A stretch of DNA of 56,742 nucleotides, counting the filler, from Jimgerdemannia flammicorona (taxonomy: Eukaryota): NCBI GenBank assembly GCA_003990765.1. It is 2 parts of 2 records of this genome, joined end to end, with 100 filler letters (N's around TTAATTAATTAA, not from the genome) between each part and the next. Parts side by side here need not be neighbours in the genome. Positions count along the whole stretch, not along the records: positions 1 to 28,323 come from RBNJ01000568.1; 1 more part is not named here. One strand, 5' to 3'. Within the stretch, counting starts at the first letter, position 1. Every line of letters starts with the position of its first letter. The translations under genes were made by a program, and so were the position numbers. Shown here one piece after another: positions 1 through 47,211 of the stretch. Under the pieces are notes generated by a model, which saw only the letters and a list, made by a program, of their open reading frames with translations, did no database searches and was not told where the DNA came from.

Positions 1-3000
1 CCCCCCCACTATCCTCTCTTGATTAAAGACCACTAGGTCATTAACTATCCCCACCTGTCCACTACTTTGTCTACAAATCTTTTCTACTAGATAGTAGTGA
101 TGCCCACTCTGGGGACCCCATCCAACTTACCACCCTGTCAACACATCTCCCACCAACTCCTCCCATCTTAACAAACTCTCTTATAAGTCCAGCTGTCACT
201 CCTCCTCAAATACAAAGAGCCAATGTCTGGCCAGCCCAACCCATATAGCTAAAATCTACCCTATAGTGAGCTATTTATTGCCCATCCCTCCCACCAACCT
301 AGTTCTCAGATCCTCTCAGCGACCACTCTCTCTATCTGACCTCCTCTTTACACTCAGCTGGTCCCCTATTGCTATCCAAAAGTCCCCCAGAACCTCACAC
401 TCTCCCAGCCAATGCTCTGGCATCTGTATAAATCCCCCAACTTATCCAACATTATAGCATGCCTCACATTTCAGTATGCTACCATCCACCAGATGCCCAG
501 CACAGAAATTCAACATAACATTCCTCTGGAGCATCTGCCACCATACTATCCAATACTTAGAAGAAAGCCACCTCTGCACCTCAGCACTCTATTTCCAGAC
601 TCCTGCCCAATCCCACTCCTTACCAATTCTCACTGCTTGCCAACCACCAGGCCAAAGATTCTGACCAAGTCCCCTCTGACACTCCACTCTATCACTAATA
701 TCAAAGGCAATTAGGGGAGTACCCCCCAGAAGCAGTCTGTCCTATCTCTATATTGCTGGACCCCACAGCATCTCCCCTTCATTACCACTCTAGCATAGGT
801 CTATGCAGTGTGCTCTATCTGCCACCCCCTATCAGAAACCTTTATACTGCAGCCTATTGCTTCCATCCAGGTTCACCAGGGAAAGCAAATCTCCTGAGAC
901 CCCTTTTGGGAAGAATCTCATCTCCCATACCTTCTGCATCAGTAGCACCCATCCCCCTCCCCTCAGTTCTACCACCTGCTTTAACCACCAAGCTCTCAGG
1001 CAATGCAGCCTCTTAGGAAAGTCTACCAGTCCTAGCCCCCCTCAAACTACTGACAATGAAAGAGTATCCCAGCTGATCTGGGATCACCTTTCAGCCCAAA
1101 TCTAATCTCTAGCTATCTTCATCAGTCTCTTCACCACCCAAGCCAGAAAGTCTAAGTAATAGGTAATATACTACAGCTTAGGGAACCAGTAGAGATTCAG
1201 AATCGAAACTCTGCCTACCAGGGAGATGTGGCAACCTCCTCAGCCTTGAAGCACCTTTCCCCAGATAGCCACCCTCCTCTCCCACCACATCCATAGCAAG
1301 GTTGATCTATATACCAAAAGAAAAATGCCCAGATACTGTACTATCTCTCTTGCTGGGACAATTGTTTCAATGACATTCCCACCCACTAACCCATTTCCCA
1401 ATACTATAGTCTCATACTTATGCCAGTTGAGCTTCACTTCAGAGTATGCCTTATACTATTCTACTATCTCCTTAAGAGCCTCAACATCTACCACTAATCC
1501 AAGTCCAACCACCATGTTATCTGCAAAGACCCCCATCTTCTACACTACACTATAAATAGTGAGCCCTGCCACTCTCCACTGAATCCTATCTATTAAAGGT
1601 TCTAATGAAAGGGCATATAGAATAGGAGACAATGGGTCCCCCTGAGGAACTCCTCTCCTCAAGTGAAATACCATGCCTCAGTGGCCATTACACATTAGCA
1701 CCACCCTACTACCCTCCAACAGATTCAATATAAAAGCTTGAAACAATGGAAGAACTTCTATTCTATCTAACACCTTGCCCAGCCACACCTGCTGAATATA
1801 GTTATAGGTCTTCTCCTGGTCCAAAAAGACTAGTCTCCCATTCAATCTACTAGTCCTTGCTCCTTCAATGACACCATAGACCCAGGCCATCCCATCTCTA
1901 ATAAGTCTGCTTCCAATAAAGCCCTACTGCTCCTTACCCAATATCTGTTGGACAACTCTCTATAATCTCACCACAATCACCTTAGTCACCATCTTCCTGT
2001 CTATATTCAGAAGTATGATTGGCCTCTAGTTCTTCCAATCCTCTCTCCTTCCCTTGTCCTTATACAACAGGGCCACCAGCCCCAGGTCCTGCCCTCCCAT
2101 CCACTGACCCCTCAAAAGAACAAGATCACAGAGGGCCGCCATCTCTCCTAACACCCCAGGGACCTATACCATCTTCTTCCAAAAGTCTCAAGATAGACCA
2201 CCCTCTCCTGGTGCAATACCAAGCTTAGTTGCTGCAATGACTCTCAGAACCTCCTCCTCTTGGACTGGAAGGATCAAATCCCCCAGGCTCTCTACTAGCA
2301 GTGGCTCTCAGTTCTCCAGAGTATCTCCAATTGCCTCTGCATTGGCACCCCCTTTCTCCTCACTCCAACAGACCCCACCATTGCTCCTTCAGCAACCCCA
2401 AGATCTGTTGCATACCATGTATCATTTCCCCTTCAGCATCAAGGACTCCATCCCACTAGTAGTATACTCTTCTTGCCCTTTAAAAGTATCTAGATGGCCT
2501 CTCCCCCTCCTCAAGCCCCTGCCACCTCAACCTAGCTACCATTTCTTTCATATGTGTCTCCTCCTCCTCTCTCAACATCTGTTGCAGTTCTATTATCTCT
2601 AGTCTAACTCATGCTAACTGTCAATCATCCACCTCATCTGAATTTATCAAATCAGCCCATTCTATCTGCAGTCTAACCAATCTATTAGACACACATCTCA
2701 CTCTTTTCCTCCTTTGCCTCCCAGCATCCCTACCAACTTCACTCTAGTAAACTCTTGTAGCTTCTTTCAACTTCATCTATCAGATGTTTACTTGCAAGCC
2801 CTCATATATCCAGCCTATGATCCTTTCCTGAATGTTCTCTGTCCAAGGGTTCCACAATACCTTCTTGGCCAGCAGGGAGGAGTTAAGACACTAATGTTCA
2901 GATCTATCTCCACTCTCCCCAAATCACTCTCACCCTAATAGTCCCCAACAGTCTGACCATAGGCACCACTCTACCTCTAGAGTCCTCCAAACATCCAGGC

Positions 3001-5775
3001 CCCAGCATTCAGCTGTCAGTATCCAGTCAATCCTTATCTCTAGACCATTCACCCAATATGTATAAACCCTCTTTTCTCCCCACTGTGTTCTGCTCACATC
3101 TCCTAAGGAGCTAAGGTTCTCCACCTCCTCTCATGCATTCAGACTGCCACTCCTTCCACCAGTACTCCTCCCTCTATCAGTTCTATCTAACTGAAGATTC
3201 CACACCATATTGAAGTCACCTCTCAGAATATCCACCCCATCCTCCAAGAATATGCCCTCCTCCAAAAGACTCTGAATCCATACAATCTGCTTACCCCTAG
3301 CTGCTGGGCAGTAATAAGAGCCAACTCTCACTGGCTCCTACCCAGGTCAACACCATTCCCCCTATACCAAACAATCACCCCAGCTCCTGATTCCACCAAG
3401 ATCTCCTTTATCCCTCTGTACCAATATTGCCACTTTGCTAATCCAAGCTATAGCTCCTCCCTATTCTCTAGCCCACTCTACTTGATCCACCTCATCTTCA
3501 CAGCATATGTCCTGTAGCAGAAAAAGATCAGCCTCTAATCCCTTAAGCTAAGTAAAAATGTTCTTCCACTGCCCAGATCCCCATAACCCATTCACATTCA
3601 GAGAAAAAATATTAGTTGTACTATTTATTAGAAAGAATATTTAGAAGTAGTATCCAGCTCATCCTCTATAAGTCCACATCCCTCCCCTCTTGAGCCACAT
3701 CTAAGTTATGTTTGACAGCCAATTCCTCCTCCTCAGCCTCCCTTGCCTCCAATCCAATCAGCAGTTCAGCTATCTCCCCATCCTCCTTTTCTTTAAATTT
3801 CTCATGATAATCCAGGCAGGCCTCCTGCCAGAGTTTCAGCCCATAATACTCTACTCAACAGAAGGTGGCCCTCTCACCAGCAACAACAGCTAGCTCAGCC
3901 TCTCTCTTCTTATTAACCTCATACCCCTCCTCCTCCAGAAGAATCACAAGTACCTCTACCTTTAGCACCTCCACCACTCTATCTCCATGCAGAATCCATG
4001 CCCAATGCTCCTTACTCATCACTCTCAGGTCTACTTCTCCCAACTCTTCAGCCACAAAGTTATTCATCATCCAACACATCTACAGTAGGTTCCCCACCTC
4101 CTTTCCTCCTGGCATCACTGGCCTCCTAGTATCCAGCATAGTGGTATTGGTCTCCACACTTGCTGTCTCATCCCACTCCTCCTCCAGAACATCCACCAGT
4201 TCATTCTCACCAACTGCCACCATCTGTCCCCCTTTTGCCATATCAGGAACTCCAAAGTGAACTCACTGGGCACTATGCATCAGTACATTCTCCACCACCT
4301 TGCTCCTCCCAGCTGGATCCCTTCTGATAAGAGGAGGAGAAGTGCTATCCAATTCCTCTTTCCAGACCTCAAATGTACCATTAGCATATGAGTCATTGCA
4401 TGGCATCTTCCTGGCCCCATCCAGGTCCTCCTCCCCATTCTCTCCTCCTTTACTAGCCCAGACACTTACCTCAGCCCCTCTAGACACTTCAGCTCTACCA
4501 GTATCCTTCTTTGTCTCTCTGCCTATACTCGCTAATAACTCTCTCTGTCTCTTGAACTCTTGAGCCCTCTCTCACTGCCTCTTGTCCATATGAATATGCT
4601 TCCTATTCACAATCTCCAAATGTGTAGCCTCTTCATATATCTTTCCAGCCTTTGCCCTCTGCTCAACTGCCCCACTCATCTCCTCTAGGGTCTTCAGCAG
4701 ATCCTCCTTCTCCTCCTCACTCCCCTTCACCCTAGACATCTTACAGATGAAGGCCCCCCACAATATAACTGAAGATCAGTCACTCATCTTCCCAGTAATC
4801 TCTCTTTCTACTAGTCTAATCCTGACATCAATATCCCCTGTCCTGAAAGTGATCCCCTCCTACATCTGGAACTCAATATTGACCATATTGCCATACTCTA
4901 CCATCACCTCCTCTACCCTCCTCCTAGTCTCAACCTTTGTTACCATAGGTACCCCCTTTACCAGCAACTGAACCACCCTGAGGTCCTACCTCAAACATCA
5001 CACCATAGGAACCACTATCTCTCCTATTGCTACTCTAGTCTTCAAAGCTTCCTCCAGTGGACCTGCCTTCTCAAAACCCACCTCAACCTCTTTTAGTCCC
5101 TTCAGAAACTTCACCAATACAGCCCCAGCCACTTGCTCCAAGATAATCTCCAGAACCATCCTTACTGTCACAGCCAAGCTCCAGAAGTACAAGGACACTG
5201 CAAACTCTAAGATTGACTTCTTGAGTAACAGTGCCACTGCCAGCCCCATCACACTATCTGCCAGGTCCCCCTTCTTCTTTGGGTCCATCTGCCTAGTCCC
5301 TCTATCAGTAGTCATATCTGGATTTTTTTCCAGATTCTCAGTTATACCACTATCAGCAGTCCCCCCCCTACTCTCAGCTACTACTCCACTAGCCCTTCCC
5401 TCCACTGGCTGAGGTCTAGTACCTCCCACTTCTCCTTCTCTCTGATTTCTCTTCCTCTCCATCCATCCACTATGAGATCCAACAGGCCATCCACTATTCT
5501 TCAATATATCCACCCTCCCCTTCTGTCCTCCTGCTCCTCCCCCAGTACTACTACCACTGCCTGAGCCACCCTGCCCACTTGGACCACTGAATGACCCCAT
5601 CCCTAATCCATATTCATGTCTAACATATTGCCATTTGAAGGCTCTAGGTCTACCCAACCTAGTACACATATCAGCTTGCTTGTTGGTTGCTATTACCTTA
5701 GTACCTTTCTCCAATAAATGCTTGAAAGTATGTTGTAAAAGTGTGTATAATATGAGTGATAATTGAGAAAGATGT
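1..5775 (-). mobile_element. Decayed L1/Tx1-like non-LTR retrotransposon (LINE A), nearly full length; 3' end lies just outside the window
   Basis: Minus-strand fragments: ORF1-like region about 5714-3650; APE endonuclease motifs SLNVNGL (~3600), GDFN (3131-3331), RIDWIL/SD (2930-3124); RT motifs FLDQEKTY (1678-1890), KLN..K/YLG (1240-1437); C-terminal EACYN...EHW...EC zinc-finger remnant (~390-470). Many in-frame stops. The 5' end begins ACATCTTTCTC at 5775. Confidence 0.92.
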
Positions 5776-6836
5776 AGGCTAGCTATTGTCTAGCAGCTTG
5801 ACTATACTAAATACAGCAGAACCTAATGTGGCTTATATCTCATTCTGTACACCATGCTCTCTTTACTACTAGGAGGAACTCAACTATATACCAATGACTA
5901 AAGATATATATCTGAAACTCCAATATATATATAAGACCATACTCAAGCTAAATAGAATAACCCCTACCACTCTAAGTGGAAATAACAGGTAAAGAAAAAT
6001 CCTTCTTAAGAAAAAGAATGATGGGTAAGACCTAGTTCTCTCAGATAAGATAAGTAGAGGACTTATATGTAAGGTGAGAGAAGACCCCCAATACTCTACT
6101 ACTCAAGCCTACAGGCCTTGATTATATTACTATATCAGCTCTCAGTTCTAGTTAAGTATAGCTAAGACACCTGATCTGGGTAGCCTTGGACCCCCCAGCT
6201 ACTCTCAATGACTGGGGCCCAATTTCATAAATTGCCAAAAGCAGACACCTACTACCTAACTACCCCATATCAATCAAAAGGCCCCACTAAAGTAGTACCT
6301 GCCCAGTCCTAATTATTACCTCCAGCCTGATATCCTACTGGTCCACTGTTATTACTCTTTCTCCTATCTGTAATAGTCATCTCTCCTCCCATCCTAACAC
6401 TATCTGAAAAATAGTCACCTATACTAGAACTATACTCACCAGGAAGCTCACTAAAGCCAGAGAGCCCCACCACAGGTACTGAGGATCTGTAAATAACCTA
6501 TACTAAGCACTTGATGCCCAAGGTTAGCTGACTCCCTATATAACTCATATTATACTGAGATGATATCTTGTTGGTAACAGCAAAAGGAAGAAGATGCTAC
6601 ATCAAAATGAGTATACCCTAGATATAGCTGAAGACACCAGATACTATAAAAAAGTAAAGAAGACACCAATCAGACACCAATAAAAGGGCAACTCATCACC
6701 ATTACTCTCTTCTCACTATACTCATGCAGATACAGTAAACTATACTAGGGTAGAGAGTAAAAAGATAGGAGAAAGGAGACCCAGACAGTTGTCTTCCAAA
6801 ACCACATGACTGGTATGATAGCAGAGAAAGGAGCAG
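5776..6836 (-). mobile_element. 1.2-kb poly(A) retroposon family, copy 1 (3' tail missing, abuts the 5' end of LINE A)
   Basis: Colinear with 33594-34791 and 44069-45257 (e.g. gacctagttctctcagat..gataagtagag, caaaaggaagaag, gttgtct.ccaaa) and ends at the same 5' point (gagaaag). Confidence 0.85.
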
Positions 6837-7499
6837 TAGTCAGATCTGATAGACTATAAAGATAATTATTTTCTCTAGATTGACTTGTGGTTTTATATTA
6901 TCTGCTTTTTTTATAACAGAGGTATCTAGATAGTAAACTGATTCCTCATAATTCATTTTGAACTTGTGTGACTAGTTGTGACTGGTTTCTAAATTTATAT
7001 AAGATTTCTTAATAAGGTAAGATACAATGATACTGCTGCTACCAAATGTAATAATTCTAGTTTCTTTAAGAGAAAGCAGCTAAATCTGATAGTTCTAATA
7101 GGTCTAAAGTAGCTTAAAGAGATATTTGTAGGTTTAAGTATTCTCAAAAGAATTCTGAGAGAAAATATTCTAAGCTTTATTTAAGTAGAAAATAAGAATA
7201 TTTATATAAGATCTGAAAGAAAGATCTGAAAGGATTTTGGAAAAGAAGAGAAAGGCCAAGAAATGGATTCTTAGCAAAGATGACTAATAGAATTCTACAA
7301 TGTTTCAAAAGGTTCTATAACTAGATACTTAGTACTACTTAGTACAAAAATATTCTAGTAATTTCTTAGTACTAAGAGAAGATTTCTAGATACTCAAAAG
7401 ATACTAGAACATAGTAGAATAATCAAGAAAAGACAAGAAAAGACTAGTAGAAAAGATATAAAAAGTACTAAGACTAAAATATAACTATGAAATTATTAT

Positions 7500-10400
7500 A
7501 CTATAGATAAGCATAGGCTGTATATGAATATACCTCATACTCTAAGATATCTCCTTTTACTAAATATTCTGACCTATAGTTCAATATCATATTGAACTAT
7601 AAGAGTCTCTACTATACTATCCAGAACTTGGGAGAAATCCACCTTACCACCTACTTGCTTCAAGACCAAATACTATTTCAGTTTTACTTTTTACTGATCC
7701 CCACTCCCTATCAGATCTCTGGCTACAAATATCTCCTATACTCCTGAAGACATTCTACACCATCTTCTAAACTAAAATTATCCTATGTCTTCTAACAGAA
7801 GATAGTCTCATCTCTATATCTGGAGTCTCCAGTCTATCTCTCCCTCATTCCTTTACCACCAGAGGCCAATTTATAGAGCACCATCAACCACTTCCCACCA
7901 GAATATTCTATAATATATCTTCTGACTTTTCTCCAGCACTACTAGTAAGAGCAAGTCACCAGACATACCATGGAGAGAGAACTGTACCTCCCATACTTTC
8001 TGCATAAGAGACACCCACTCTCAGTCTCTTAACTTACTAGCTTACTTTAGCCATTATATCCTCAAGTAGTATAGATACTTGGTGAAGTCCACCAGATCCA
8101 GCTCTCTCCAGTCTACTGATAATGTCAATATCTTCCAGCCAATCTGACTTTACTGCTCTGCCTATATCCACATTCTGGCTGTCTTCAATAGTCTCTTAAC
8201 CACTTATGCTAAGAAGTCTAAGTAATACTTCAGATACTTTAACTTAGGTAGCTAATATATATTCAACACTATTACTCTTTCTACCAGAGAGATATATCAG
8301 CTGCCCTATCTCAGGAGAGTATTTCTCTACTCAATCAGCTACTACTCCTACTATCTCTGAGACAACAGAGAACTATATACTGAGAAGTAGATTTTTAGAT
8401 ATCAGACTGTCTCTTCTATCAGGACAACTGTTCCAATCATATCCTTTCCTACTATTTCTCTATCTAGTACTAGGGTCTTGTACTTGTATCAGTTAAGCTT
8501 AGCATCTGAGCATCTCTCATACTATTCTACTATACTCTTCAGTATTGCTATATCCTCCACAGAACTCAGCCCTACTACTATACTATCATCAAAGGCCCCC
8601 ATCTTCTAGTTCACTCTCAGAATATTCAACCCCCCCATCTTATGTCTAATCCTATCTAATAAAGGCTCCAGAGAGAGAGTATAAAGAATCAGTAACAGTA
8701 AGTCTCTCTGTGGCACTCCTCTATTTAAGGAGAAAGACTCTTCCCTGTGATCATTCATCAGAATAGCTGTCTAACTCCCCTCCAACAAACTGATCAAAGA
8801 TTGTCTAAACTCTGAGAGAACCCTCATACATTTCAGTATCTCCTCTAGCTATACTCACTAGATGCTAATCTTGGTTCAGAAATACTAGTCAACCATCTAT
8901 CCTGATAGCATATACTCCTTCAATAACTCTGTATACCTATACTATCTCATCTCTTATCAAACAACCCCTGATGAAGTCTCTCTGCTCTGCCTCTAATACT
9001 TGCTAAGTTACTCTTTAGAGTCTAGCTATTAATATCTTTATAACTAACTTGTAATCTATATCCAGAAGTATGATTGGCCTCTAGTTCTTCTATTTCTCTC
9101 TTCTTCTCTTATCCTTATATAATAGAGCTACAAGACCCAAGTACTGCTCCCCAATCTAAACCCCTGAGCTAATAACTTCATCACACATCTACATCATCTC
9201 CTCTAAAGCCAACTCTACACTCACCATTCTCTTTCAGAAATCTCAAGATAAATCATCCTCTCCTGGACCTAATCTAAGACTTATCATTACTAATACTCTA
9301 TAGATCTCCTCCTCTTAGACAGATACTCTAAGTTTACCTAAGCCCTCTACTGGAGCTAGGTACCAATCCTCTAGCTGCTGTTCAATGTCCAATGTATTCT
9401 CTCTACCCTTCTCCTCATTCTATAATCTCCTTTATCAGAAACTCAACTGGTCTAAAATCTCTGGAGTTCTGATAACTATCTCTTCTGTCTCATCCAATAC
9501 TCCTTTCTACTGCTGCTTCACTCTTCTCACTTAAAGCAGCCTTGACAAGAACTTCATAGACCTCTCTTCCTTCTCTAAGTCCTACCATCTCAGCTGAGCT
9601 ACTATATCTTTTATCTGCAATTCTTTCTTCTGTCTCAGCAGTCACTTCAGTTCTTCTACCTCTAGCCAGGCCCACTGAACTCTTTAATCCCCCTTCTTTC
9701 TATTATTCAGCAAATCAGCCTACTTTTCCAATAGCTTCTTCAATCTCTGGGAAGCCCACCTTAAACAACTCCTCCTCTGAGTATCTCCTCTCTCTCCCTA
9801 TTTCTCTTCAGAACTACTGAGTATCAGATTTCAAATACTACTACTGATCTCCAATCTCCAGCTCCCATGTCCTCTAGCTAACAATTCTGAAGCTAATGTC
9901 TACCATCTATATATCCCACTAGGAGGGCTTCCCCAGCAATAAAGTATTTAGATACTAATGTCTAGGTCCCTTCCCACTTCTCTCAAATTTTCCACAACTC
10001 AGCAAACTCCAGTGATCTGACTATAGGCAACAAACTATCTCTAAAGAACCCCAGACATCTACTCTCCAGCACTCAGTAGTCAAGATCCAGTCAATCCTTG
10101 AATCCAGCCCTGCCATCTAGTAAGTATAGATCCTGCAATCTCTCCACCCAAGATGCTCAGCATCTACCAGTGAGCTCAGCCTCTCAATATCCTTCCAGTC
10201 TTCCATATCTCTACTCTTATTAGCTATCTCTCTCCCACTATCTATCCTGTCTAACTGCTCATTCCATATTATATATATTAAAGTTACCACCCAGATAGTC
10301 AATCTTCTCTACTACTATAGTATCTGCATCTTATAGTCCTCTTATCTACTTCATCCACTCCCTCTTTTCTGCTGAGCAGTAATATGACCCAACAGTTAAG

Positions 10401-10550
10401 AGACTCCAGCCTGGCCTCCTCTACACTCTCCACACTACTTAGCTCTCTCAATGTCCAATGTCTCCAATATCCCCCATACTCTTCTGAATCAGAATACCTA
10501 TCTGATCCTATCATATGACCACATCCCCCCTCCATTCTTATCTAGTCTAA
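7500..10550 (-). mobile_element. Decayed L1/Tx1-like LINE B (endonuclease-RT part of ORF2), boundaries approximate
   Basis: Homologous to LINE A ORF2: identical agaagtatgattggcctctagttcttc block at 9064 and 2009; GNFN (GDFN) at ~10280; RIDWIL at ~10090; RT region ~8400-9100. Heavily stop-riddled. Confidence 0.85.
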
Positions 10551-11254
10551 TATATCAATTTTTTTTTATTTTTTTTTAAAGTCTCTTGGACTTTGCTATT
10601 TATTACCCATCTATTATATATAATTACAATATCTTCTCACACTACTCAATATCCCTAGAGAGCTCTCTCCCCCACACTCTCATGCTTAAAAACCATCTTG
10701 CCACTCTTCACACCAACCTTTCTCTCACTCTGCTCACAAATTTTCTCCACCAAATAGTACTGCCAACCTCTCTGCAGACCCCATCCCAGTCACCAGCCTA
10801 TCAAGATATTCTCCAGCAACCCTTCTCACCTTACCAACCACTCCTCCAAACTCAAACACTTTCCTTCTTCAAATACAAATAGCTAGTGACCTGTCAGTCC
10901 TGTCTATATCACTAATATCCACCCAAAGTCAGCCACTCCCTCCCTATCCCCTCCCACCAATCTATCTCTCAAATCTTCCCAATGCTCCCACTCACTATCC
11001 CCCCTATACACAACACTCAACCTATTCCCAACTACTAACCAAAAGTCTCCAAGTACCTCATACTCTCTCAGCCAATGTTCTGGCATCTGCACAAACTCTC
11101 CTTTCTATCCTACATTATAACACTTCTCACAATCAAAGTTCTCTCCTTCTACAAGATGTCTTGAGTGAAAGTTGAGTATAACATTCCTCCACAGTATATA
11201 CCATCAAACCACTCAGTATTTGAGTGGTAACCATCATCTTATCTCTACACTCCA

Positions 11255-13265
11255 TATAAGAGGGTTACTTTTTAGAATAATCATTACATAGTTCTGGAAG
11301 GGTTTTCTGAAAGTTCTGGATATTCTGGAAGACTGTTTTCTTATGGTCAAGATCAATTTCATATGGAGTATGTCCTCTATGCTTATTGATTTCAAGATCG
11401 GGTTGACATCTCAACTAAAGTCCTTTTTCAGACTAGTTCTGAATGTTCAGGATTTTCTGTATTTCAGGAAGTTCAAGAAACTAAGACCAGCTTAGTTGAA
11501 TTGGTGTATTGCTGCAGACAATACTTAATTAGGAAATTTTGTGATGGGGTTAGGAGTGGGACCTAACAGAGAGCAGATTTACTTAAGGTTAGTTTGTGGA
11601 TTATTAAATAGGTTTATTCACTATTCACGATATTGCTATACTAGGAGTAGTTGTGTGAAGGGATATTGTGGGGAAGTATTCAGGAATGTTCTTGTGTATT
11701 TGAGTCTGTTTAAGTCTGAGATTCTGAGGTCTGAGAGAGGGGGTATTTATACTAGTAAGGGACTATCTGAGCTATGCTAAATATGGATGTAGCACTAAGT
11801 ACCTTGCTGAGTCAGTTCACAGTCACATCATACAAGGCTAATCTAACTATACTATAACTGCTAAGCTATTTGTAGATTTAGATGCTGTCTGAGTAGTCTT
11901 CAATGACATCACCATCAATGACATTATCTCTGATGAAGTAGTCATCTAGGAAAAGTGGTTCGTGGATTACTTCTCCTTGTTTACTGAGGTAATAATATAT
12001 TGGAACTTTGTCACCATCCCACAGGATAGCATCATCTGTCTCATATGCTGGATAAGGTGTTGGTGGGTGAAGGAGGGGTGTATTGTCTTCACTTTCATTA
12101 GATTTGCTGTCTGCATACCTTCTATAAGTTACAGTACTATAAGTTGCAGAGTTGTAGTAAGCTGACAGCTATGATTCATGTCACTCGTACTCAAGTGGTA
12201 GAGTGGTTGGTTCAATCTCAAGAGTTGTCTGAAGGTACAGATTGTGTTCTCTGATCTCTTCATTATAGTTGAAGTAATTGGGGGTGAACACAGATTGGTA
12301 TTTGTACCAGTGGTCATTATCCCAATAAGTCTCATATTTGGTTATGAACTGTTGTAAGTTCATTGGTAAGGTTGGCGGTGTGATCAGGGTTGGTAGAGAT
12401 CCTTGGCTTGAGGTCATGTTGGCATTAGAGGGATCATTGTCTTCTGCTTCATCTTCGTCGAAGTGGATTATATCATAGATATCCTTCATAGCATATCTGA
12501 CTTGGGGCATTTGTAGAATATGGTCATTGGGGTGTGGGAAGGTTCTGTCGGTGGTCTGGACATATTCAAGATACTTGTGGTTGAGTTTTTGAATCATATT
12601 GTCAATTTGGCTATAGGACAGAGTAGTAACCATTTCACTAGTAGTAACTCGGAGGCAGAGAATAAAGGTGCTGTACTTATAGAAGAGTTCTCGGTATTTG
12701 TGGGCAATGATCTTCTGGTGTTGAGACATCTGGGTGATATCTGTATCATGGTGGTATTCAACCATGTCTTCTAGGAGATAGCTAATCTGGTAGTAGCTTG
12801 AGATTTGTCCAATTCAGTGGGCTTCATTAAGCATGTTCAGGGCATTCCATCGGGCTTCCATGAAGTAGAGGGGTACTAGGCTATGAATATTCATGAGGGG
12901 CAGAGGGGGTGTGGCTCAGTTGACAATAGCATTCCAAATGTCAGCGCAGATGCGGTTGTAGATCTCAGTGGTCATATTTGTATATGTTCAGAAGTTGTAG
13001 TTGTTGTTTGTTTTGGTTCTCTGTTTTGATGTGTCTTAGTGCCCAGTATATATGCATTTGGTCCTGATTGGTAAGATTCCGTTTGTGTGAATCTTGTGTT
13101 CTGTGACTTCATGTTGACTCAGCTTTGTGTGCTATGACTTCTGTTTGACTCAGCTTCATGATTGAGCAGGTGATTTCCAGATTTGTTCAGCTATTACATG
13201 TGATCTTGGTGGCTTGTTCAGAGGGTGATGTGTGATTTCTGTGGCTTGGAGGTTGTGCACTTACA
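11255..13265. mobile_element. 2011-bp solo-LTR-like element with 5-bp TSD
   Basis: Termini TATAAG (TGTAAG in the second copy) ... CTTACA; flanked by CTCCA at 11250-11254 and 13266-13270; interrupts LINE C ORF2. Confidence 0.85.
11878..12975 (-). pseudogene. 365-codon ORF of unknown function inside the solo-LTR-like element
   Basis: One frame from ATG (MTTEIYNRICADIW...) to TAA (...DVIEDYSDSI*) with no frameshift and only four internal stops (three TGA, one TAG), all explainable as CGA/CAG C->T; the TAG site reads CAG in the second copy. Includes ORF 12181..12765. Confidence 0.75.
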
Positions 13266-15288
13266 CTCCAGGCCCAGACTCTATTCTAGTCCCACTCTTC
13301 TCCAATTCCTACCACCTGTCAGCTACTAGGCCATATATCCTGTCCCATCCCTCTCTGGTACTCTACTCCATTGCTAATATCAAAGTCTATGAGAGAGATA
13401 CCCCCAGCAATACTTGATCTCATCTCCACATTGCTGGGCTCCATGGTGCCTCTCCTTCATCTCCCTGCCAGCAAATCTCAATACAGTGAGCCCCATTTAC
13501 TACCCCCCACTAGAAACTCTTATATCTCATTTACTCTCTATTTGGAAGTATAATCAAGGACAGCAAATCTCCAGTAGCTCCTCTTGGTGAACACTGCATC
13601 TCTCAGACCTTCTTCATTAGAGAAATCTAGCTATCACCTCTCAGTTCTACTACTCTCTTCAGCTACCATACTTGTAGACAATATAGCCTCTTTGGGAAGT
13701 CAACCAGTCTAAGGCCTCCTCCAGCCACTAACAATGATAAGATTTCTCAGCTAATCTGACTCCTCTGCTTAGCCCAGATTCCACCTTTTGTCAGCTTCAA
13801 TAACCTCTTCACTATCTAGGCTGGAAAGTCCAGATAATATACCAAATACCACAACTTCAGTAGTCAGTAGACATTCAAAATTATAATGTATCCTGCCAAA
13901 GACAGGTGACAGCCTCTCCAATCTCTTAGGACCTCCCCCCAGATAGCCACTTGTTACTCTCACCAAATGTATGACAAGACTGACCCATACATAGAGAGAT
14001 AGATACCCAAGTACCTCACAGCCTCTTTAGTAGAGACAATTGTTCCAATGACATCTCCTCCCACCAGGCTATTATCTAATACCATTGTTTCATACTTATG
14101 TTAGTTAAGTTTAGCCCCAGAGTATACTGCATACCACTCCACTATTTCCCAGAATTCCTCAATATCAGCAATCAATCCAAACTGACTACCATATCATCTA
14201 CAAAGACACCAACCTTCCACACAATACTGAATATGGAGAGCCCCACTATCTTTCACTGAATTCTATCCAACAATAGCTCTAAAGACAGAGTACACAAAAT
14301 CAGGGACAGGGAGTCCCCTTGGAGAATGCCTCTTCCCAGAGAAAAGGCCACCTCTCTATACTCATTGCATATGAGTATTGCTCTACTCCTTTTCAGTAGA
14401 CTGATCATTGCCACTTAAAACTGCTGAGGGATACCAATCTTGTCCAAAACCTTCACCAGCCAAACTCACCATATATAATCATAAGCTTTCTTCTAATCCA
14501 AGAAGACCAGTCTCCCATCCAGTCCATAGGTCCAAGCCCCTTCAATAATGTTATATACTCAGGCCATGCCATCCCTAATGAACTGACCCCCTACAAACCC
14601 TTGCTGCTCCTCACCCAAAACTTGCTGGGCCACCTTCTGCAACCTTACCACTACTATCTTAGTAACCAACTTCCTGTCTATGTCTAGAAGCATGATAGGC
14701 TACCAATTCTTCCAGTTTTTTCTTCTACTCTTATTCTTATAAAGTAGTACCACTAGCCTCAGATCTTGCTCCCCCACCCACCTCCCTAACTATAGTACCA
14801 AATCACACATCACCATCATCTCTTCCAGTACCCCAGGTACTCCCAGCATCTTCTTCCAAAAGTCCCAGGGCAGACCATCCTCTCTAGGTACTGTTCCCAG
14901 CATAGTTGCAGCAAGAACCTGGTAAATCTCCCCCTCCTAAACTGACATTACCAAACTGTCCAACCCATCTACTTGTGGCAGGTACCAATCCTCCAAAGCA
15001 TGTGCAATGGTAGCAGCCATTGCTCCACTCTCCTCCTCACTCCACAAACTGCTCCACCTCTCCTTGAGTGAGTCCAAAATATCCTGTGAACTATGTACCA
15101 GTAGCCTATGTGAATTCAGTACCCCCTCCCACCTCTGCCTCACCTCCTTGCCTGCAGAATTTTTGAAAGATACTTAGATGGCCTCTCCTCCTCCTCAAGT
15201 CCCTGCTAGCATAATTGGGTAGCCAAACTCTACACCCATATCTCCTCCTCTTCTCTCAATACCTATCATAGCTCAGTAACCTCCATCT

Positions 15289-16976
15289 TAGTCTGGTATA
15301 CTCTCTACTTTATAGAAGCTTGATGGAATACTCTGAACATACTCAGCAAAGTCTATCAAATTGGACAAATCTCAAGCTACTACTATATTAGCCACCTCCT
15401 AGAAAACATAGTTGAACACTACTATGATATAGATATTACTTAGATATCTTAATACCAGAAACTCATTACTCATAAACACTAAGAACTCTTTTATGAGTAT
15501 AGTATCTTTATTCTCCATCTTTAAGTTACTACTACTGAAATGATTGTTACTCTGTCTTATGGCCAAATTGATGATATAGTATAAGAACTCAATCACAAGT
15601 ATATTGAGTATATTCCAATCATAGACAGATCCTTTCTACATTCTGATGACTATATCTTACAAATATCCCCAAGTTAGATATACTATAAAGGATATCTATA
15701 ATATAATTTAGTTCAATAACAATAAAGTAGAAGATAATAATCCCTCTGATACTAATATGACCTCTAGTTAAGGATCCATACCAGCCCTAATTACCCCACT
15801 AACTCTGTCAATGAACTTACAACAGTTTTTAACTATCTACAAGACCTATTAGAATAATAACCACTGGTATGAGTACTAATCTACATTTATGTCTAATTAC
15901 TTCAACTACAATGAAGAGACCAGAGAATATAACCTATACCTCTAAACAACTCTTGAGATTGAACTGACAATCTCACCTCCCAAGTACAAATAAAATAAAC
16001 CACAGCTACTAGCTTATTACAACCCTACAACTTATAGCACCATTATCTATAGAAAATATACAAATAGCAAATCTGATGAAAGTGAAGATAATGCACTTCT
16101 TCTCTACCCACCAACACTCTATTCAGCATATAAGACAGATGATATCATCTTGTAGAATGGTGATATGATTTTAATATACTATTATATAAATAAATAAGGA
16201 GATATCATTCAAGAATTACTCTTTTTAGATAACTACTTCATCAGAGATAATGACATCAATAGTGATCTCATTGAAAACTACCCAAATAGTATCTAAATCT
16301 ATAAATAACTTAGCAGTCATTGATATAGTTAGATTAGCCTTATATGATATAACTGCATACTGACTCAGCATCAGACAATCTCTTGATATATCAGTTCACA
16401 CTTATACTATGTGACTGTATTCTGACTTAGCAAGGCACTAAGTGCTACATATATCCATATTTAGTATAGTCCAGATAGCCTCTAAATATCCACTCCTCCA
16501 GACCTCAGAAACTTAGACTTAAATAGATATAAATAGATCCAAACATAAGAACAACTCCTCCACAATATTCCTTCATACAACTACTTCTAGTATAGTAATA
16601 GTATAAATAGTAAATAAATCTATTTAATAATCTACAAACCACTCTTAAGTAAATCTATATTCCATTAGGTCCTATTCCTAATCATATTATAAAATTTTCT
16701 AATTGGGTATTATCTGCAGTGATATGCTAATTCAACTAAATTGGGCTTAGTTTTTTAAACTTCCTGAAATATAAAAAATCCTGAATATTTAAAACTAGTC
16801 TGAAAAAGGACTTTAGTTGAAATATTAACCTAATCTTGAAATCAATAAGTATAAAGGATGTATTTTATATAAAATTGATCTTAACCTTAAAAAAACAGTC
16901 TTCTAGAATATCTAGAACTTCTAGAAAACTCTTTCAGAACTATATAACAGTATTCTAACTAAGTAACCCTCTTACA
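15289..16976. mobile_element. Second, inverted and truncated copy of the 2-kb LTR-like element
   Basis: Reverse complement of about 11255-12885; ends CTTACA at 16971-16976; more heavily C->T/G->A mutated than the first copy. Confidence 0.88.
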
Positions 16977-17669: not shown

Positions 17670-18053
17670 TAACTCAATCTCTCAGTTATATAATTTATAT
17701 AATTATATAAAAAGTATAGTTATATAAATCTCTCAGCTATACAGATCTCTCAGCTATACAGATTTTACAATATACAGATCTTTTAACTATATTAAATAAC
17801 TTATAGAAAAAGAAGTCTTAACTTAGCTACTATATAGCTAGTAACCTTATATAAATATCTTTAGTATTTAGAGTAAATAAACCTCAGATTAAAATAGTTT
17901 AAGCAAAGAGATAAGAAACTAGTAAGCTTACAGGCAGATATACTTCAAACTCACTCACCCCTATATCTGAGAACTCTAAGAAGTCAAAGAAGATCAAGTA
18001 TTCAAGATAAAGAAATCTACTATACTTCTATTAGTATATATCTATTATATTAT
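17670..18053 (+). repeat. Decayed LTR fragment related to the LTRs of the Gypsy element at 30015-35779
   Basis: Shares gtaaataaacctcagatt.aaatagtt, cttcaaactcactcac and gtcaaagaagatcaag with 30300-30430 and 35595-35725. Confidence 0.75.
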
Positions 18054-18074
18054 AGTATATTAAGTTAAATTATA

Positions 18075-18396
18075 TATTAGATTGAGTTGTGTTTTAGGTT
18101 TCAGATCAGGTTTGGAATTTGGATCAGATTAAAGATAGATCATGTTTTTTTTCTAAGTCAGATTAAAGATGAGTTATATATATATATTTTTTATATTTTT
18201 TCTTAGATCAGATTAAAAATAGATCACATTTTTTTTTTAAGTTAGATTAAAGATGGGTTATGTTATTTTTTGGGTCAGGTTAAAGATGGGTCACATGTTT
18301 TTCTTAGGTTGGGATAATGACAGATAATGTATAATTCTGAGTTGGCTATTTTTCAGATTAAGTTTTAAGTTCTCAGGTCAGGTTTGCAGAGCACTA
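18075..18396 (-). mobile_element. Probable end of a hAT-like DNA transposon or MITE
   Basis: Minus strand starts TAGTGCTCTGCAAACCTGACCTGAG (a CpG-decayed ACCCGACCCG-type subterminal motif) followed by several imperfect copies of tcagattaaagatgggtca. No partner end or TSD seen. Confidence 0.4.
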
Positions 18397-23815: not shown

Positions 23816-25130
23816 ATGGACGAAGACGCTGGGGCCGACATGGACCTGCACTTCGTCTCAGCGTACACATACCTGAACGAACACCCTGGGATCGCGTCTT
23901 CAAACGATACCTTGCTCAAGGTGTGTGCTACGTCGGTATTTCGTCCTCCTTCCCTTCTCTCGCCTCACAATTCCCCCTCTCGGCACATCCATAGCTCTAC
24001 GCCTACTACAAGCAAGCAATACAAGGCGACTGCACGATACCAAAACCAGGGCTGTTCGAGTTTGTGGCGCGGGCCAAGTGGGATGCGTGGAAGGGGTTGG
24101 AGGGGTTGGGACGCGGAGAGGCGATGAGGGACTATGTGGAGACGGTGATAGGAATGCGGTGCGGATGGGACCCTGAGGGGAACCATCGCGAGGAGGAGGC
24201 TGAAGGGGCAGGGGGGGAAGAGGTGAGTTTTAGATCCAGAGGGGTGGGTGTGGAGGAGAAATGTAAGGGGTTTTGATGTTGACAATGGACGGGTTTGTTT
24301 TGTAGAGACTTGGGAATTCGGTGAGCACAATGACGTACGGTGAGGAGGATAGGTGAGTCGTTTTCTTCGACGCCACGCTTCTTTCCTTCGCGTGTTCGCC
24401 AATACCTCAACGCTCTCCCGCACCCTCACGATTCCGCATAAAATTGAACCGAGTAGCTCCGACGAGCCGATCGATATCTTCTATCACGTGAAGGAGGGCG
24501 ACCTCGCGGCGACGGTACAGTCGTTGGATGACGAAAGGGTAAACGTGAACGAGAAAGATGATCAGGTATGCTCGTTGTTGTGGCGTTTGCGTGTGTGGTG
24601 CGGGGTTAGTGATGTCGTAGGATTACTAAGCTTGGGTATTACGGCAATGGTTCTCTCACGTGTTCACACGTTGCTCTCATCAAGGGCCTCGCGCCGTTGC
24701 ATTGGGCATGTGATCGGGGGCACACAGAGATTGTAGAGCTGTTGCTGAAGCGGGGCGCGGATGTGAATGTCGTGGTGCGTATGGCTACGGTCGATTTTTC
24801 ACGCATCGGAACCTCTTTTTTTTTTTTTTTTTTTTTTGATATTGAATGTTTGCTTTCCATTTGTTGGCAACAGACGGAAGAGAACGAAACGCCATTACAC
24901 TACGGTATGAATGAATGATGCTATTTCATAATCCATGCCCGTCCTTTTACATGTTTGAAATCTTTGATTGAAACCATGCATCTGTTACTACAGCGTGCCT
25001 TTCGGAACGACTGGAGATTGCGCGGATCCTCCTGCAGAATCGGGCTGATACGACGATACGCGATGAAGACGGTAACACCGCATTCGAGGGTGCGAACCAG
25101 GGGTTCGTGGCACTTGTTCAGGCGGATTGA
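23816..25130 (+). CDS. Acyl-CoA-binding domain plus ankyrin repeat protein (ACBD6-like), 7 exons
   Basis: Exons about 23816-23920, 23995-24222, 24306-24351, 24457-24566, 24685-24774, 24874-24904, 24994-25130 with GT-AG introns; ACB motifs LYAYYKQA..GDC..PKPG..AKWDAW..L.G....EAM..YV; ankyrin motifs PLHWACDRGH.EIVELLLKRGADVN and ETPLHYAC. Confidence 0.93.
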
Positions 25131-25633
25131 GTGATATGGAAACGAAATGAGTGGATTTAATTTGTCTGGAGTTGCTGATGGGTTAGTGTTTTTTATAAAA
25201 TAAAATAAAAATCTTTCGCAATCTATAGATGAGTGGTCTCAGTTGTGATTGATAGATTGACGGATGGATGACGACAGTGTTCGGTGGGTATGAGACCCGG
25301 CCACACGGGGCGCGTTGTGTCATGTGCTGGGTGACTGCATTGGATTCCAGCCCCAAGTATGCATGGTGAGAGTTGTCTCGGCCGTCGGAAAGGCGAAAAG
25401 GGGGTTTGAAAAAGGAACAGAGCGCGTGAGTTACATCATCGAACAAGCACCTTGGACGTCAGGTGAGTGTGGCACCCCTTTTGGAAGGACCCTTTCTTAC
25501 CACTCTTGAACTGTAGCATCGTGAGCTCTTTCCCCAACATAATACACACCCAAAATTTGGAGCTCAATTGCCCGCTAACCTCGAACTCACCCTCATACTT
25601 CCCCACCCGTCGCAGTTCACTCCACCCCTTGCA

Positions 25634-28218
25634 ATGAGCCACTCCAACATCCCCGGTCTCGGATTCATATGTCCCGGCAACCTCACCTACGCCGGTAGGA
25701 TCTCGCCCTGCAGCCTGGACACCGTCGTCTTTGGCACCCTCGCCCTGTACATGTTCCTGGTCGTCGTCCGCCGTGCGTGGAAGTCGAGTCGTGGTGCGTA
25801 TATAGCGTGAGTCACGACGACACCGTAATTCCAAGAATCCCAAACAGTGTACAATAATTACTTGCCACGCGACCACATCCAATCTCAACCAATAATCAAT
25901 CTCAATCCCCCCCCCACCTAGACTCGTCCGCCACCACGACGCGTCCCCGTCGCTACCCCCAGGCGCTGCACCCACTCATGACGGCCGTCCAAGCCCTCGT
26001 CCTCCTCATCTGCGCCACATGCCTATTCCAGACGCTGTACCTCGTCGTCCTGCAGCAGACGGACCCGACCGTCCCGCTGGTCCCAACTTACCTTCTCCCA
26101 TACTCTGCGCTACATTTCCTCGCCTGGCTAGCCAACTACTTGATCCTCTCCTCCGACAAGCGGCACAACCGCACGTACTATCTCCCTGCGCAAGCTTTCT
26201 GGCTCCTCGCCCTCGTCGCCGCGCAGGTCGAACTGTACGACCGCACGCTATACCTTGTTGGCACAGACGAGGAAGAGGATGGCCCGGCGAAGGTGGCGCC
26301 CGTCTTCGTCGCCAATTGGGTCCTGTTCGCGGCGTTCGTGGTGCGGTACGCCCTGACATGGGCCCTCGTGATCGTGGCGGGGATTCTTGAGTGGAAGGTT
26401 CACCACGGGGACGAGTGGGGCTCCGATGGCGAAAGGAGCGACGACGAGACGGTTGACGAAGTGAATGGTCGCATCGGTCAGTACCGTCGCCTTACGCCGG
26501 ACCTGAATAACGGCGACGGAGATGTCGAGAACAGCCCCACTACCATCTCGCCCACACCGCTAGACGACGCAACCCACGCACTCTTCACCAACGGCCTGGG
26601 TAAAGATTACGGCACGCTTTCTAAACGGCCTCGTCGTGCGCGGCGAGCCTCCAGCACGACCACAACCACTACCACGGCCACAACGGTTCCCGTGCAAACA
26701 CTCACGTCGTCACCGCACACGAACTACATTGCCAAGCTTCGGCGACTGTTCCCATTCATGTGGCCGCGCAACGATCGCCGGCTGCAGCTTTTGATTGTTC
26801 TATGTCTGTTGCTACTGGTGGCCGAACGCGTCGTGAACGTGTTGTTACCCATTTCGTATAAGAACGTCGTGGACGCGCTGGCAAAGGAGGGCGGCGGCGG
26901 GAGAGTTGTGTGGAAAGAAATTTTGATATTTGTTGGACTCAGAATGCTTCAGGGAGGAGTTGGATTCATTGGGACCGCACAGAAGGGGTTGTGGGTGCCG
27001 ATTGGGCAGGTGTGTTGAAGTTTAAGGAGATATTTTATGTTTAGAGCTTTTTAACCAGGTTCTGATTAAGATTTTTCTACGTGCCAGTTCACGACCCGCG
27101 AGCTCCAGGTCCGTATGTTTGAACACCTCCTCAACCTCTCTCTCCGCTTCCACCTCAACCGCAAGACTGGCGAGATCCTCCGCGTGCAAGGTACTCCCAT
27201 GTTCTATTCCCGTGCTCCAACGTACCCCACCTCCTTTAACCAACCATCTACTCACGCCTTTCTCCTTTTAACCTTCGGTCCCCTCCATAGACCGCGGCGT
27301 AACAAGTATCGTGACGCTTCTGACAACGATTTGCTTCAATATCCTGCCGACGCTGACGGACGTGACGGTAGCGTGCGTGTACTTCACGTTGGCTTTCGAC
27401 GGGTGGTTCGGCGCAATCGTGTTAACGACCATGGCCGCGTACGTTGGATTTACAATGCGATTGACCGAATGGAGGATGCGGTATCGCAGGGAGACTAACC
27501 GGCTCGAGAACGAAATGGAGGCTAAAGCTGGTGGGTTGTGTGACGGTAGGGGAGAAAAAGACGGGGGTTTGAATATTTAGGTTCTCACGGTTTTTTTTTT
27601 TCTTCAGTCGATGCCCTCCTCAACTACGAAACCGTCAAGCTCTATGCAAACGAAAAGTCAGTTCCTCCCCTTTCCTTCCCAATTTTCCACTCCAACCCCT
27701 GCTTACACACATCCCGTTTTAACCACAGATTCGAAGTGGAGCAATATGAGAAAGCAATCGTATCCTACCAGCAGGCGGACCTGAAATCCAACACGGTGGC
27801 AATGACGATCAGCACGGTCCAGAACGTGATTCTGCAGGTGGGCTTGTTGACCGGGTGTCTACTGTGCGCGCGCCGTGTCACCATGGGGACCATGACCGTT
27901 GGAGATTTCGTTGCGTACATTGGGTATATGACCCAGTTGTATGGGCCATTGAGTGGGTGCGTGATTTGAAGTTTTTGTCGAGTGATGAGCAGTTTGTTTT
28001 TAAGTTGTGGAATCGGGCGTCGTTCTTTGGTTGATGTTGCTTCTTTTTTTGTTTTACGATGCCATAGATTCGGATCGTACTACAGGTGAATGTTTTCCTA
28101 TTTCCCAATTTGCGTGTGCATTACAATCTCGGTCAGCATTGTGTCCTTTTTCGAAACATTATTTCATTTTTACCCTAACATGCGTTTCTTGGTATGAAAC
28201 CGTCGCAGGTCGATGCAG
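25634..28218 (+). CDS. HMT1: HMT1/ABCB6-like half ABC transporter (N-terminal extension and TMD); NBD exons absent because the contig ends
   Basis: Spliced translation gives FEHLLNLSLRFHLNRKTGEILRVQDRG, FNILPT, TEWR..YRRETN, DALLNYETVK, MTVGDFV..Y..QLYGPLSGFGSYYRSMQ, typical of the ATM1/HMT1 family; the long hydrophobic N-terminal extension favours HMT1/ABCB6. Confidence 0.88.
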
Positions 28219-28323
28219 GTACTCTTTCTCCCTCCTCTTTCATCACGCTTGATAAATTTTGAAAACACAACCCCAACCGGTTATACCGCAATTATATAAC
28301 CCGATACAATCCTCCCCCCCCCC

Positions 28324-28423
28324 NNNNNNNNNNNNNNNNNNNNNNNNNNNNNNNNNNNNNNNNNNNNTTAATTAATTAANNNNNNNNNNNNNNNNNNNNN
28401 NNNNNNNNNNNNNNNNNNNNNNN
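28324..28423. other. Artificial 100-nt contig spacer (N44-TTAATTAATTAA-N44)
   Basis: Symmetric N runs around a palindrome with stop codons in all six frames; sequence character changes abruptly across it. Confidence 0.95.
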
Positions 28424-28758
28424 ATTAGTTACTTATACTTAGTCAGAAATCACAAACCAACTTATATAAATATTTGATGGGAGTGGTTACTGCTGGATAT
28501 TTTGAATAGTTAGTGGAAGAGGTGAGAACCTGGAGGGAGAACCTATAGGAGACTTGTGGAATGTATTTGTAAGAAGAGTAGAGAGAGAGTTGGAGTTGCT
28601 GGGAGGTTCATAGCACTCTAGAGGAGTAGAGAGGGTAGGGAGAAGGGGGGTTTAGGTAAAGAGTATATCTATACTTTTGTATTAATATAATATAGATTGA
28701 ATGGTAATTGATAATAAAGTGGAAGTCTAAGTAACTATAAAAAAAAAAAAAAAAAAAA
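28424..28758 (+). mobile_element. 3' tail of a LINE with poly(A)
   Basis: aataaa at ~28713 then an A run at 28739-28758; resembles the 3' end of LINE C (atagat..g.taataaa..aagtc.aag..act.taaaa). Confidence 0.65.
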
Positions 28759-28759
28759 G

Positions 28760-29958
28760 ATATATATTATTATAAAGTATTTATTTTACTTTTTAGAAAT
28801 TATCATTCAGAAAAGAAAGTTTTAAAAAAAGACTATTATCTAATAGAAATTTAGTATAAAAATATATAAATATAGAGATATAGAAATTATATTAAATAAG
28901 AAAAAAGACTAAGAATTATATAATTAAGATATAAATATTATAATAGAATAATATAAAAAAGATTTACAAGTCTCTAAGATTATTAAAATAGAAGATAAAG
29001 TTATAATATATATATTAAAATAAAATAGAAGCTTTATGATTATAAAAACTAAAAGCTAAGTAAGAAGAATCTTATCTTATAAAAAGATCTATCTTTTAGC
29101 TATAAAAACTCTTAGATATATATAATTATCTTTATTACTATTTATCAAAACTAACTCAAGAAGTATTATATATAACTAATAGATAAAATATAGCTACAGT
29201 CCTCAAGATTACCAGTACTGCTCAATGAGCTATAGAAAGACAATAATATACTACTAAACTCTCAACTAAGAGAAATCTTATAATAGTATCTAAAGTATTA
29301 TATAGATATATTTATCCTAAATCTCTTACTTTATTACTTATCAATAATGAGCTAAATTTCAAAAGTACTATAAGCTTGAATAACTTATTAGCTAATATAT
29401 ATTTATAAAAATTAAAAAAATATTAAATTGCTATCTATTAAGTCTTCTATAGACAGATTATAATTATAAACCAGTCTTACTATATATATCTTAGAGAAGT
29501 AATTTTAGTGCATTTTATAAAAATATAAAGAGCTTATTGAGTAAATATAATTACTCAGATAGAATAACATAGAGTTATTTGAAATATAAAAGCTTGAGAG
29601 TTTAAATAGATATATATTTTATAAATAAAATTATCTATTTAGAAGAAAGTTATAATAATTAATTTTATAAGAAATAGAAATTAAAAGATAGATATTTAAT
29701 TATAATATCTGAATTTGATTTCTAAATTTAGTATAATATAGTTAGTAAACTTATATAAATATCTTCAGTATTTAGAGTAAATAAACCTTAGATCAAAATA
29801 GTTTAAAAGTAAAGAGATAAAGAAAACTAATAAGTTCTATAGGTAGATATACTTTGAACTTATATATCTATCTCTATACTTAAGAACTCTAAAGAGTTAA
29901 AGAAGATCAAGTATTTAAAATAAAAAAATCTATAGTTATATATTTATTTTATATTATA
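28760..29958 (+). mobile_element. Highly decayed Gypsy 3' remnant (integrase traces, PPT, shortened LTR 29651-29958)
   Basis: agaagaaagt PPT at 29641 followed by an LTR similar to 35308-35779; the upstream AT-rich sequence has integrase-like traces. Confidence 0.6.
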
Positions 29959-47209: not shown

Positions 47210-47211
47210 TT

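Follow-up and report, generated by a model that had tools for sequence, protein, structure and literature searches.

Long terminal repeats (LTRs) are usually regarded as non-coding control regions, and protein genes lying wholly within an LTR are, to our knowledge, textbook curiosities of a few vertebrate retroviruses. In mouse mammary tumor virus (MMTV) the superantigen gene, sag, is an open reading frame (ORF) in the U3 region of the LTR, and in foamy viruses the accessory genes have a second promoter. Here we describe a unit of 2,011 bp with a 365-codon ORF, found in a 56,742-nt stretch of the genome of the fungus Jimgerdemannia flammicorona (GenBank assembly GCA_003990765.1; two parts of two records joined by 100 filler letters, positions 1 to 28,323 being from RBNJ01000568.1). 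This whole stretch is referred to as the window. We consider it probable that the unit is a solo LTR of a retrotransposon family in a filamentous fungus competent for repeat-induced point mutation (RIP), and that the LTR is long because it holds a complete protein gene in the sense orientation.

In working terms MMTV sag appears to be the closest described system. As that system is commonly described, the likeness consists in a sense ORF of ~320-365 codons that an unusually long LTR contains in full, so that both LTRs carry it and solo LTRs retain it, with an accessory product that is not gag, pol or env. MMTV, unlike the present element, is a vertebrate betaretrovirus; here the host is a fungus, the protein has no Pfam match and the U3 position is a predicted one. 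The nef gene of HIV/SIV and bel/bet of foamy viruses, looser parallels, are 3′-terminal accessory ORFs that extend into U3. Those ORFs overlap the LTR only partly and start internally, whereas the present ORF has its ATG and its stop codon, and a promoter-like module as well, within the LTR.

Among plant Ty3-gypsy elements, those of the Retrosat2/RIRE3/RIRE8/Ogre type combine, in the excerpted account of PMC3485330, LTRs of >3 kb with a lineage-restricted orphan ORF0 that evolves faster than gag-pol. A very long LTR together with an orphan extra ORF is what they share with our unit; the difference, according to the same excerpt (PMC3485330), is that their ORF0 is internal, between the 5′ LTR and gag-pol, and that the elements are those of plants. 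In Podospora the crapaud LTR family, as excerpted in PMC10787394, is subject to RIP and includes numerous solo LTRs; its subfamilies differ from one another in the 5′ half of the LTR, a parallel to the uneven sequencing depth along the present LTR. The only ORFs named in that excerpt are GAG and a polyprotein, with no LTR ORF described, and the comparison is one of descriptions only (PMC10787394). No fungal or plant retrotransposon with an LTR-internal ORF was found in the open-access full-text literature.

The unit, at 11255-13265, is a clean insertion within a copy of a long interspersed nuclear element (LINE, a non-LTR retrotransposon). Its flanks, 10736-11254 and 13266-15206, belong to one LINE copy by self-BLAST and alignment; this copy, called here copy B, lies on the minus strand (10736-11254, with a reverse-transcriptase-like translation, and 13271-15206 beyond the target site), and self-comparison matches 10736-11131 with window positions 73-468 and 13274-15206 with 595-2522. 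The pentamer CTCCA stands directly to the left (11250-11254) and directly to the right (13266-13270) of the unit. In a three-way alignment the paralogous LINE copy (window positions 400-680) crosses the site without an insert and with one 5-mer region. Because the paralogous LINE is uninterrupted here and has a single 5-mer region, the repeated CTCCA marks a true insertion with a 5-bp target-site duplication (TSD), within the 4-6 bp expected of an LTR element. Such a duplication and an integrase-type insertion had been proposed in a first-pass annotation of the window, made from the sequence alone, and the empty paralogous site bears both out.

The sense strand of the unit is the minus strand of the window, as is that of the ORF, and reads 5′ TGTAAG...CTTATA 3′. 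The right end is CTTACA (13260-13265), while the left end is TATAAG (11255-11260), one G>A change short of the perfect 6-bp inverted terminus TGTAAG. The first-pass annotation, which gave both 6-bp inverted termini as perfect, was correct for the right one and mistaken for the left one in this copy. The TG of the left terminus is present in contigs from other sequencing runs, which have a loose end before 11257, and a second copy of the unit in the window reads ...CTTACA. Ends of the TG..CA type with short inverted termini are those of an LTR.

Contigs from four public runs (two soil metagenomes and two organism runs) were placed on the stretch. The family turned out to be highly repeated elsewhere, with 3196 contigs placed from run X1, 421 from X6, 276 from X7 and 596 from X2. 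The summed depth falls by one to two orders of magnitude immediately beyond 11255 and 13265 in all four; in X1, for instance, it is 20 at 11136-11216, 3256 at 11298-11378 and 22 at 13323-13403. Contigs that continue past 13265 read, in sense, ...AAGAAGGGGAGAGT and then TGTAAG (seven contigs of X2, agreement 0.69), i.e. a polypurine tract (PPT) before the LTR start. Those that continue past 11257 read, in sense, ...CTCTTACA, ACT and TGGTAGCAGCGG (two contigs of X6, agreement 0.98), so that a TGG-type sequence resembling a primer-binding site (PBS), TGGTAGCAGCGG, lies 3 nt beyond the LTR end. PPT and PBS are in this way seen indirectly, through the loose-end consensus of contigs from other runs. 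Presumably the PBS is one base off the complement of the 3′ end of animal/plant initiator tRNA-Met, which would indicate an element of the Ty1/copia type; the 56.7-kb window contains no tRNA gene.

Since a PPT adjoins one end and a PBS the other in these runs, the unit is read as the LTR of a larger element; and since it serves elsewhere as both 3′ and 5′ LTR, the window copy is read as a solo LTR. The termini, the TSD, the empty paralogous site and the drop of coverage in the four other runs all point the same way, and together with the signs of a once-intact ORF given below they uphold the first-pass description of a solo LTR that carries a gene of its own.

The ORF runs on the minus strand from an ATG at 12975 to a TAA at 11878 (365 codons plus the stop) and takes up 1098 of the 2011 bp of the element. 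An in-frame TGA is found five codons upstream of the ATG. Within the frame there are four stops, TGA at codons 20, 54 and 265 and TAG at codon 269, all of them C-to-T changes on the sense strand, and there is no frameshift relative to the relatives of the ORF. Coordinates and stops agree with the first-pass annotation, which had described this minus-strand frame as free of frameshifts and broken by four stops of the C->T type. A 365-codon window with no more than four stops was obtained in none of 500 first-order Markov simulations scanned in six frames (minimum seven, mean 14.5).

A second LTR copy, inverted, 5′-truncated and more heavily RIP-mutated, was found by self-comparison at 15303-16974 on the plus strand; it ends in ...CTCTTACA. 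It is 77-79% identical to the first copy, lacks element positions 1-395, and keeps codons 36-365, with 14 stops and a frameshift from one 1-nt insertion. The first-pass statement that a second copy retains the ORF region holds with these defects. Transitions make up 307 of the 360 differences between the two copies. Among the C>T changes 73 of 144 are followed by A, and among the G>A changes 54 of 88 are preceded by T, as compared with 93 of 232 for all G's. The second copy passes the usual RIP indices, with TpA/ApT of 1.13 and (CpA+TpG)/(ApC+GpT) of 0.96, and the first is lightly hit (0.86 and 1.27). We attribute the mutation of the LTR copies to RIP, with its CpA/TpG preference, on the strength of this spectrum.

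APOBEC-like strand-specific editing, an explanation raised by the strong GC skew, was rejected for the LTR: the per-base rates of C>T (144/398) and G>A (88/232) are alike and the changes follow CpA/TpG. The second copy is cut at element position 395/396, exactly at the end of LINE copy B (15206-15303). Its missing 395 nt were found neither beyond LINE copy B nor elsewhere in the window, so the insertion of a LINE into the LTR does not by itself account for the junction.

An ancestral frame was reconstructed by choosing C or G at each transition difference between the two window copies. Over the 330 shared codons the first copy has three stops, the second 14 and the reconstruction one; this last stop (TGA versus TAA) fits an ancestral CGA.

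Two metagenome proteins, P0002 and P0003, are relatives of the window protein, P0001. P0003 (128 aa) is open, is 84% identical to residues 1-128 and carries Arg at the positions of window stops 20 and 54. P0002 (247 aa) is also open and aligns at 62% identity to residues 115-365 (155 of 251 identities, 200 of 251 positives), with two in-frame 2-residue gaps and the same C-terminus. Collections of metagenome, viral and prokaryote contigs yielded no loci of the family. Between the two window copies, one indel run falls in 993 nt of the ORF as against six in 623 nt downstream, or five if a 1-nt gap at the very end is omitted (Fisher p = 0.03), and the 29 transversions within the ORF fall at codon positions 3, 1 and 2 in the numbers 16, 8 and 5 (p = 0.013). 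The open frames at 84% and 62% identity, the avoidance of indels and the excess of third-position transversions all support constraint on the encoded protein, as far as comparison of these sequences can tell. By the reconstruction, the common ancestor of both window copies had an open frame, which RIP later broke.

In the sense direction the LTR presents, in order, a tandem repeat of 31 bp x 2, a TATATA, the ORF, TGACTCAGC, TATAAATA, an AATAAA and then about 350 nt. The tandem repeat (13094-13156, minus strand) is enhancer-like, each of its units having a TGACTCAGC (13115-13123 and 13146-13154); its length varies in the other runs, where joints skip 31-69 nt between 13111 and 13231. The TATATA at 13047-13052 (minus strand), 77 nt before the ATG, is a candidate TATA box of an ORF transcript. 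Downstream of the ORF a further TGACTCAGC (11806-11814, minus strand, with loose ends at 11805-11815 in other runs) precedes by 55 nt the second TATA box, TATAAATA at 11744-11751 (minus strand), which is a candidate promoter of the genomic RNA and would mark the end of U3. About 130 nt after TATAAATA comes the only AATAAA downstream of the ORF (11613-11618, minus strand), kept in the second copy and a candidate polyadenylation signal in the R/U5 border region.

We take TGACTCAGC to be a bZIP motif of the AP-1/Gcn4/Yap type. Exact TGACTCAGC sites number four in the 56.7-kb window and are all within the two LTR copies, against ~0.4 expected by simple base odds; the shorter TGASTCA is not enriched in the window (nine found, 9.6 expected). 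In the second copy and most contigs of the other runs a second TGACTCAGC-type site is present downstream of the ORF, about 62 nt from the first. As a side observation, a pair of CTGACTCAGCA-type direct repeats encloses ~62 nt that the second copy and most of those contigs keep and the first copy has lost (11805-11815 as compared with 16370-16431). This looks like a slippage deletion, by which the first copy lost one bZIP-type site of the two that precede the second TATA box.

The two promoter-like modules and the single AATAAA suggest that the ORF lies in U3 with a promoter of its own. U3 would then extend from the LTR start to about 11720 and include both the ORF and its promoter-like module, followed by a short R, with about 350 nt left for U5. 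The first-pass parallel with sag and nef as U3 genes fits in that TATAAATA and AATAAA are downstream of the ORF, while the placement itself is a deduction from sequence motifs. Run X7, whose RNA nature is a guess, has a depth of 430-950 downstream of about 11783 and of 1-23 over the ORF, with a rise of about 16-fold from the bin 11784-11864 to the bin 11703-11783; if the guess is right, this profile fits, as a hint, a main transcription start after the ORF. Because the ORF sits in U3 under this layout, each cycle of reverse transcription would copy the gene into both LTRs, and recombination between LTRs would leave a gene-bearing solo LTR. The ORF would probably be expressed from the upstream module (two TGACTCAGC sites and the TATA box), with a transcript that ends at the LTR polyadenylation signal, and could be transcribed from any LTR.

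A different layout would make the upstream module, with its TATA box at 13047-13052 and two TGACTCAGC sites, the main promoter. The ORF would then be in an R region of ~1.4 kb with its end beyond AATAAA. Each LTR, whether solo or not, would form a full cassette of promoter, gene and terminator; the genomic RNA would have the ORF as its first frame, and polyadenylation in the 5′ LTR would give rise to ORF-only mRNAs. The enhancer-like repeat upstream, the TATA box 77 nt before the ATG, the stop five codons before the ATG and the lack of any other AATAAA downstream of the ORF can all be read in this way, and the orphan ORF0 that precedes gag-pol in plant Retrosat2/RIRE-type elements, as excerpted in PMC3485330, offers a parallel. 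Against it stand the second module of TGACTCAGC plus TATAAATA between the ORF and AATAAA and the profile of X7 (again, guessed to be RNA), in which high depth is confined to the part downstream of about 11783; a 1.4-kb R would, besides, be very unusual. We regard this layout as unlikely and keep the ORF in U3.

The protein itself has no counterpart among known families. Pfam gave no families for P0001, P0002 or P0003, a sequence search of the PDB gave no matches for the ORF protein, and the gag and pol sequences of the window's other elements showed no similarity to it; this agrees with the first-pass remark that the protein does not resemble gag, pol or a transposase. An exhaustive search of 1.84 billion representatives returned P0002 and P0003 as the only true relatives, plus one spurious match. 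The latter, P0004, a bacterial tandem-repeat protein (E = 1e-5), was rejected: a single 36-residue helix was matched six times over its repeats, and its own Pfam rows are scattered sub-threshold stretches. By these sequence searches the protein is an orphan.

Fold prediction, which the first-pass annotation had recommended, produced no reliable model: the mean predicted local distance difference test (pLDDT) score of AlphaFold2 was 31.2 with a 5-row alignment and 49.1 for the N-terminal 128 aa, both too poor. The ESM Atlas gave no usable lead; the best rows for P0003 were unrelated hypothetical or viral coat clusters with at most 155 shared features, and structural rows for P0002 had template modelling (TM) scores of at most 0.30. 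The models suggest only that the N-terminal third is helical and that what follows is mostly unstructured; this latter part is acidic and rich in Tyr, Trp, Phe and Pro. The protein might be an accessory factor for the element, since its C-terminal two thirds, which are acidic, rich in aromatic residues and probably disordered, would be in keeping with an activator of LTR transcription or a scaffold for particle assembly. Either role, transactivator or assembly scaffold, is a low-confidence guess from composition alone. For the anti-silencing role that the first-pass annotation had floated, no support was found.

The frame could also be a piece of coding sequence recently captured from the host or from another element, e.g. 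a diverged remnant of gag or of an accessory ORF drawn into U3 by a shifted plus-strand priming site, and carried as a neutral passenger that is still open in a few young copies. That just two relatives, both fragments, were found among about 15 billion predicted proteins, that the protein has yielded no family, fold or motif, and that depth in the DNA runs is lower over the ORF part than at the 3′ end of the LTR would all be understandable on such an origin. A recent passenger is hard to reconcile, however, with P0002, which at just 62% identity still has an open frame of 247 codons, 80% positives and no gaps other than in-frame ones, or with the scarcity of indels in the ORF and the preference of transversions for third positions; nor is there any likeness to gag or pol of the window's other elements. 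Capture appears to us still less likely than the long-R layout, and a gene maintained by the LTR family is the reading preferred here.

The idea that the unit is no LTR but a self-contained non-autonomous TG..CA element that an integrase mobilises in trans and whose cargo is the ORF (the small cargo element of the first-pass annotation), is hardly credible, for although in the window the unit is only ever single (one complete copy with TSD and one truncated, never paired) and neither a full element nor an internal gag-pol of the family is seen there, the same ends in other runs continue into a PPT and a TGG-type PBS oriented as for 3′ and 5′ LTRs, and the unit has no terminal direct repeats of its own and, when read by eye with no formal search, no PBS or PPT inside it for reverse transcription.

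Several observations weigh against a gene-bearing LTR as we describe it. The PPT and PBS junctions are 30-nt consensus ends from a few short contigs of other samples, with agreement of 0.58-0.69 for the PPT. Depth over the final 250-500 nt of the LTR is, in the three DNA runs, two to five times that over the ORF part, so many members of the family may lack the ORF block or may have just the R-U5 end in common. The ORF part is nearly uncovered in X7, the run guessed to be RNA, as the depths given above show. P0002 begins at an internal Met (residue 115), which may point to a copy that is truncated or has a break upstream; both it and P0003, moreover, are singletons on contigs of ~1 kb which could share an organism or come from close relatives. 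Finally, the proposed role is guesswork because, apart from these two proteins, no relatives and no family or fold could be detected.

The window has another element with long LTRs, an almost complete but stop-degraded LTR retrotransposon at 45664-56595 with the domain order dUTPase, reverse transcriptase, integrase. Its LTRs, of 1546 and 1862 bp, have the ends TGTAAC...ATTACA, and the 3′ LTR has ~340 extra bases (around 55375-55710). Because of this element, long LTRs can be said not to be foreign to this genome. It resembles the ORF-bearing LTR in the length of its LTRs and in the ends TGTAA..TTACA, but differs in that stop-free frames in its LTRs reach at most 88 and 111 aa, respectively. 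No DNA or protein similarity was found between this element and the ORF-bearing LTR, and the sequence beside its 5′ LTR differs.

Three diverged LINE copies, copy B among them, lie on the minus strand across positions 1-11254 and 13266-15300. They show a GC skew of -0.4 to -0.6 over about 11 kb, the sense strand having about 33% G and 13% C. Strand-specific editing of the LINEs was considered and rejected, the per-base rates of G>A and C>T between copies being similar; because of this similarity, the skew looks like a property of the LINE family rather than the result of one-strand editing.

Elsewhere the window contains many degraded retroelements and AT-rich blocks that bear the dinucleotide signature of RIP. 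An LTR element at 30014-35780 has 474-bp LTRs that are 88% identical and 5293 bp apart, and solo or fragmentary LTR-like copies related to it occur at 17705-18088 and 29569-30028. GC in the block of this element goes down to 18%, and the RIP indices are strong (TpA/ApT of 1.21, and 0.67 for the second index, at 28500-30500). A repeat of 1.05-1.2 kb is present in three copies that are 72-75% identical (5775-6834, 33588-34787 and 44064-45253); one copy is inside the 30014-35780 element, and the repeat is probably internal sequence of that family. Translations revealed two intron-split host genes. One, around 23995-24918, is an acyl-CoA-binding/ankyrin gene; the other, around 25858-28000, encodes an ABC transporter of the mitochondrial/HMT1 type and has a weak MTABC_N match. 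The host genes (23995-28000) are GC-rich (50-59%) and un-mutated, and directly adjoin RIP-degraded repeat blocks, with an isochore-like boundary between genes and repeats at about 28000-28500.

It is possible, though we hold it to be rather doubtful, that a high-copy LTR family of soil fungi keeps a functional gene for a 365-aa orphan protein wholly inside each LTR, with its own promoter of bZIP sites and TATA box and with the LTR polyadenylation signal. If this is true, each insertion and each solo LTR derived by recombination seeds a new expressed copy of the gene. The family would provide an LTR-borne accessory gene outside retroviruses, which could be a transactivator or assembly factor of the element or a gene family spread by LTRs. 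A conserved fungal LTR gene would show that retroelements acquire accessory genes in U3 outside animals too, and gene-bearing solo LTRs would mean that such an element is not fully disarmed when its LTRs recombine. A gene family of this kind would be concealed by annotation pipelines in which LTRs are masked. It would also be a tractable system for the accessory functions that retrotransposons need in hosts defended by RIP.

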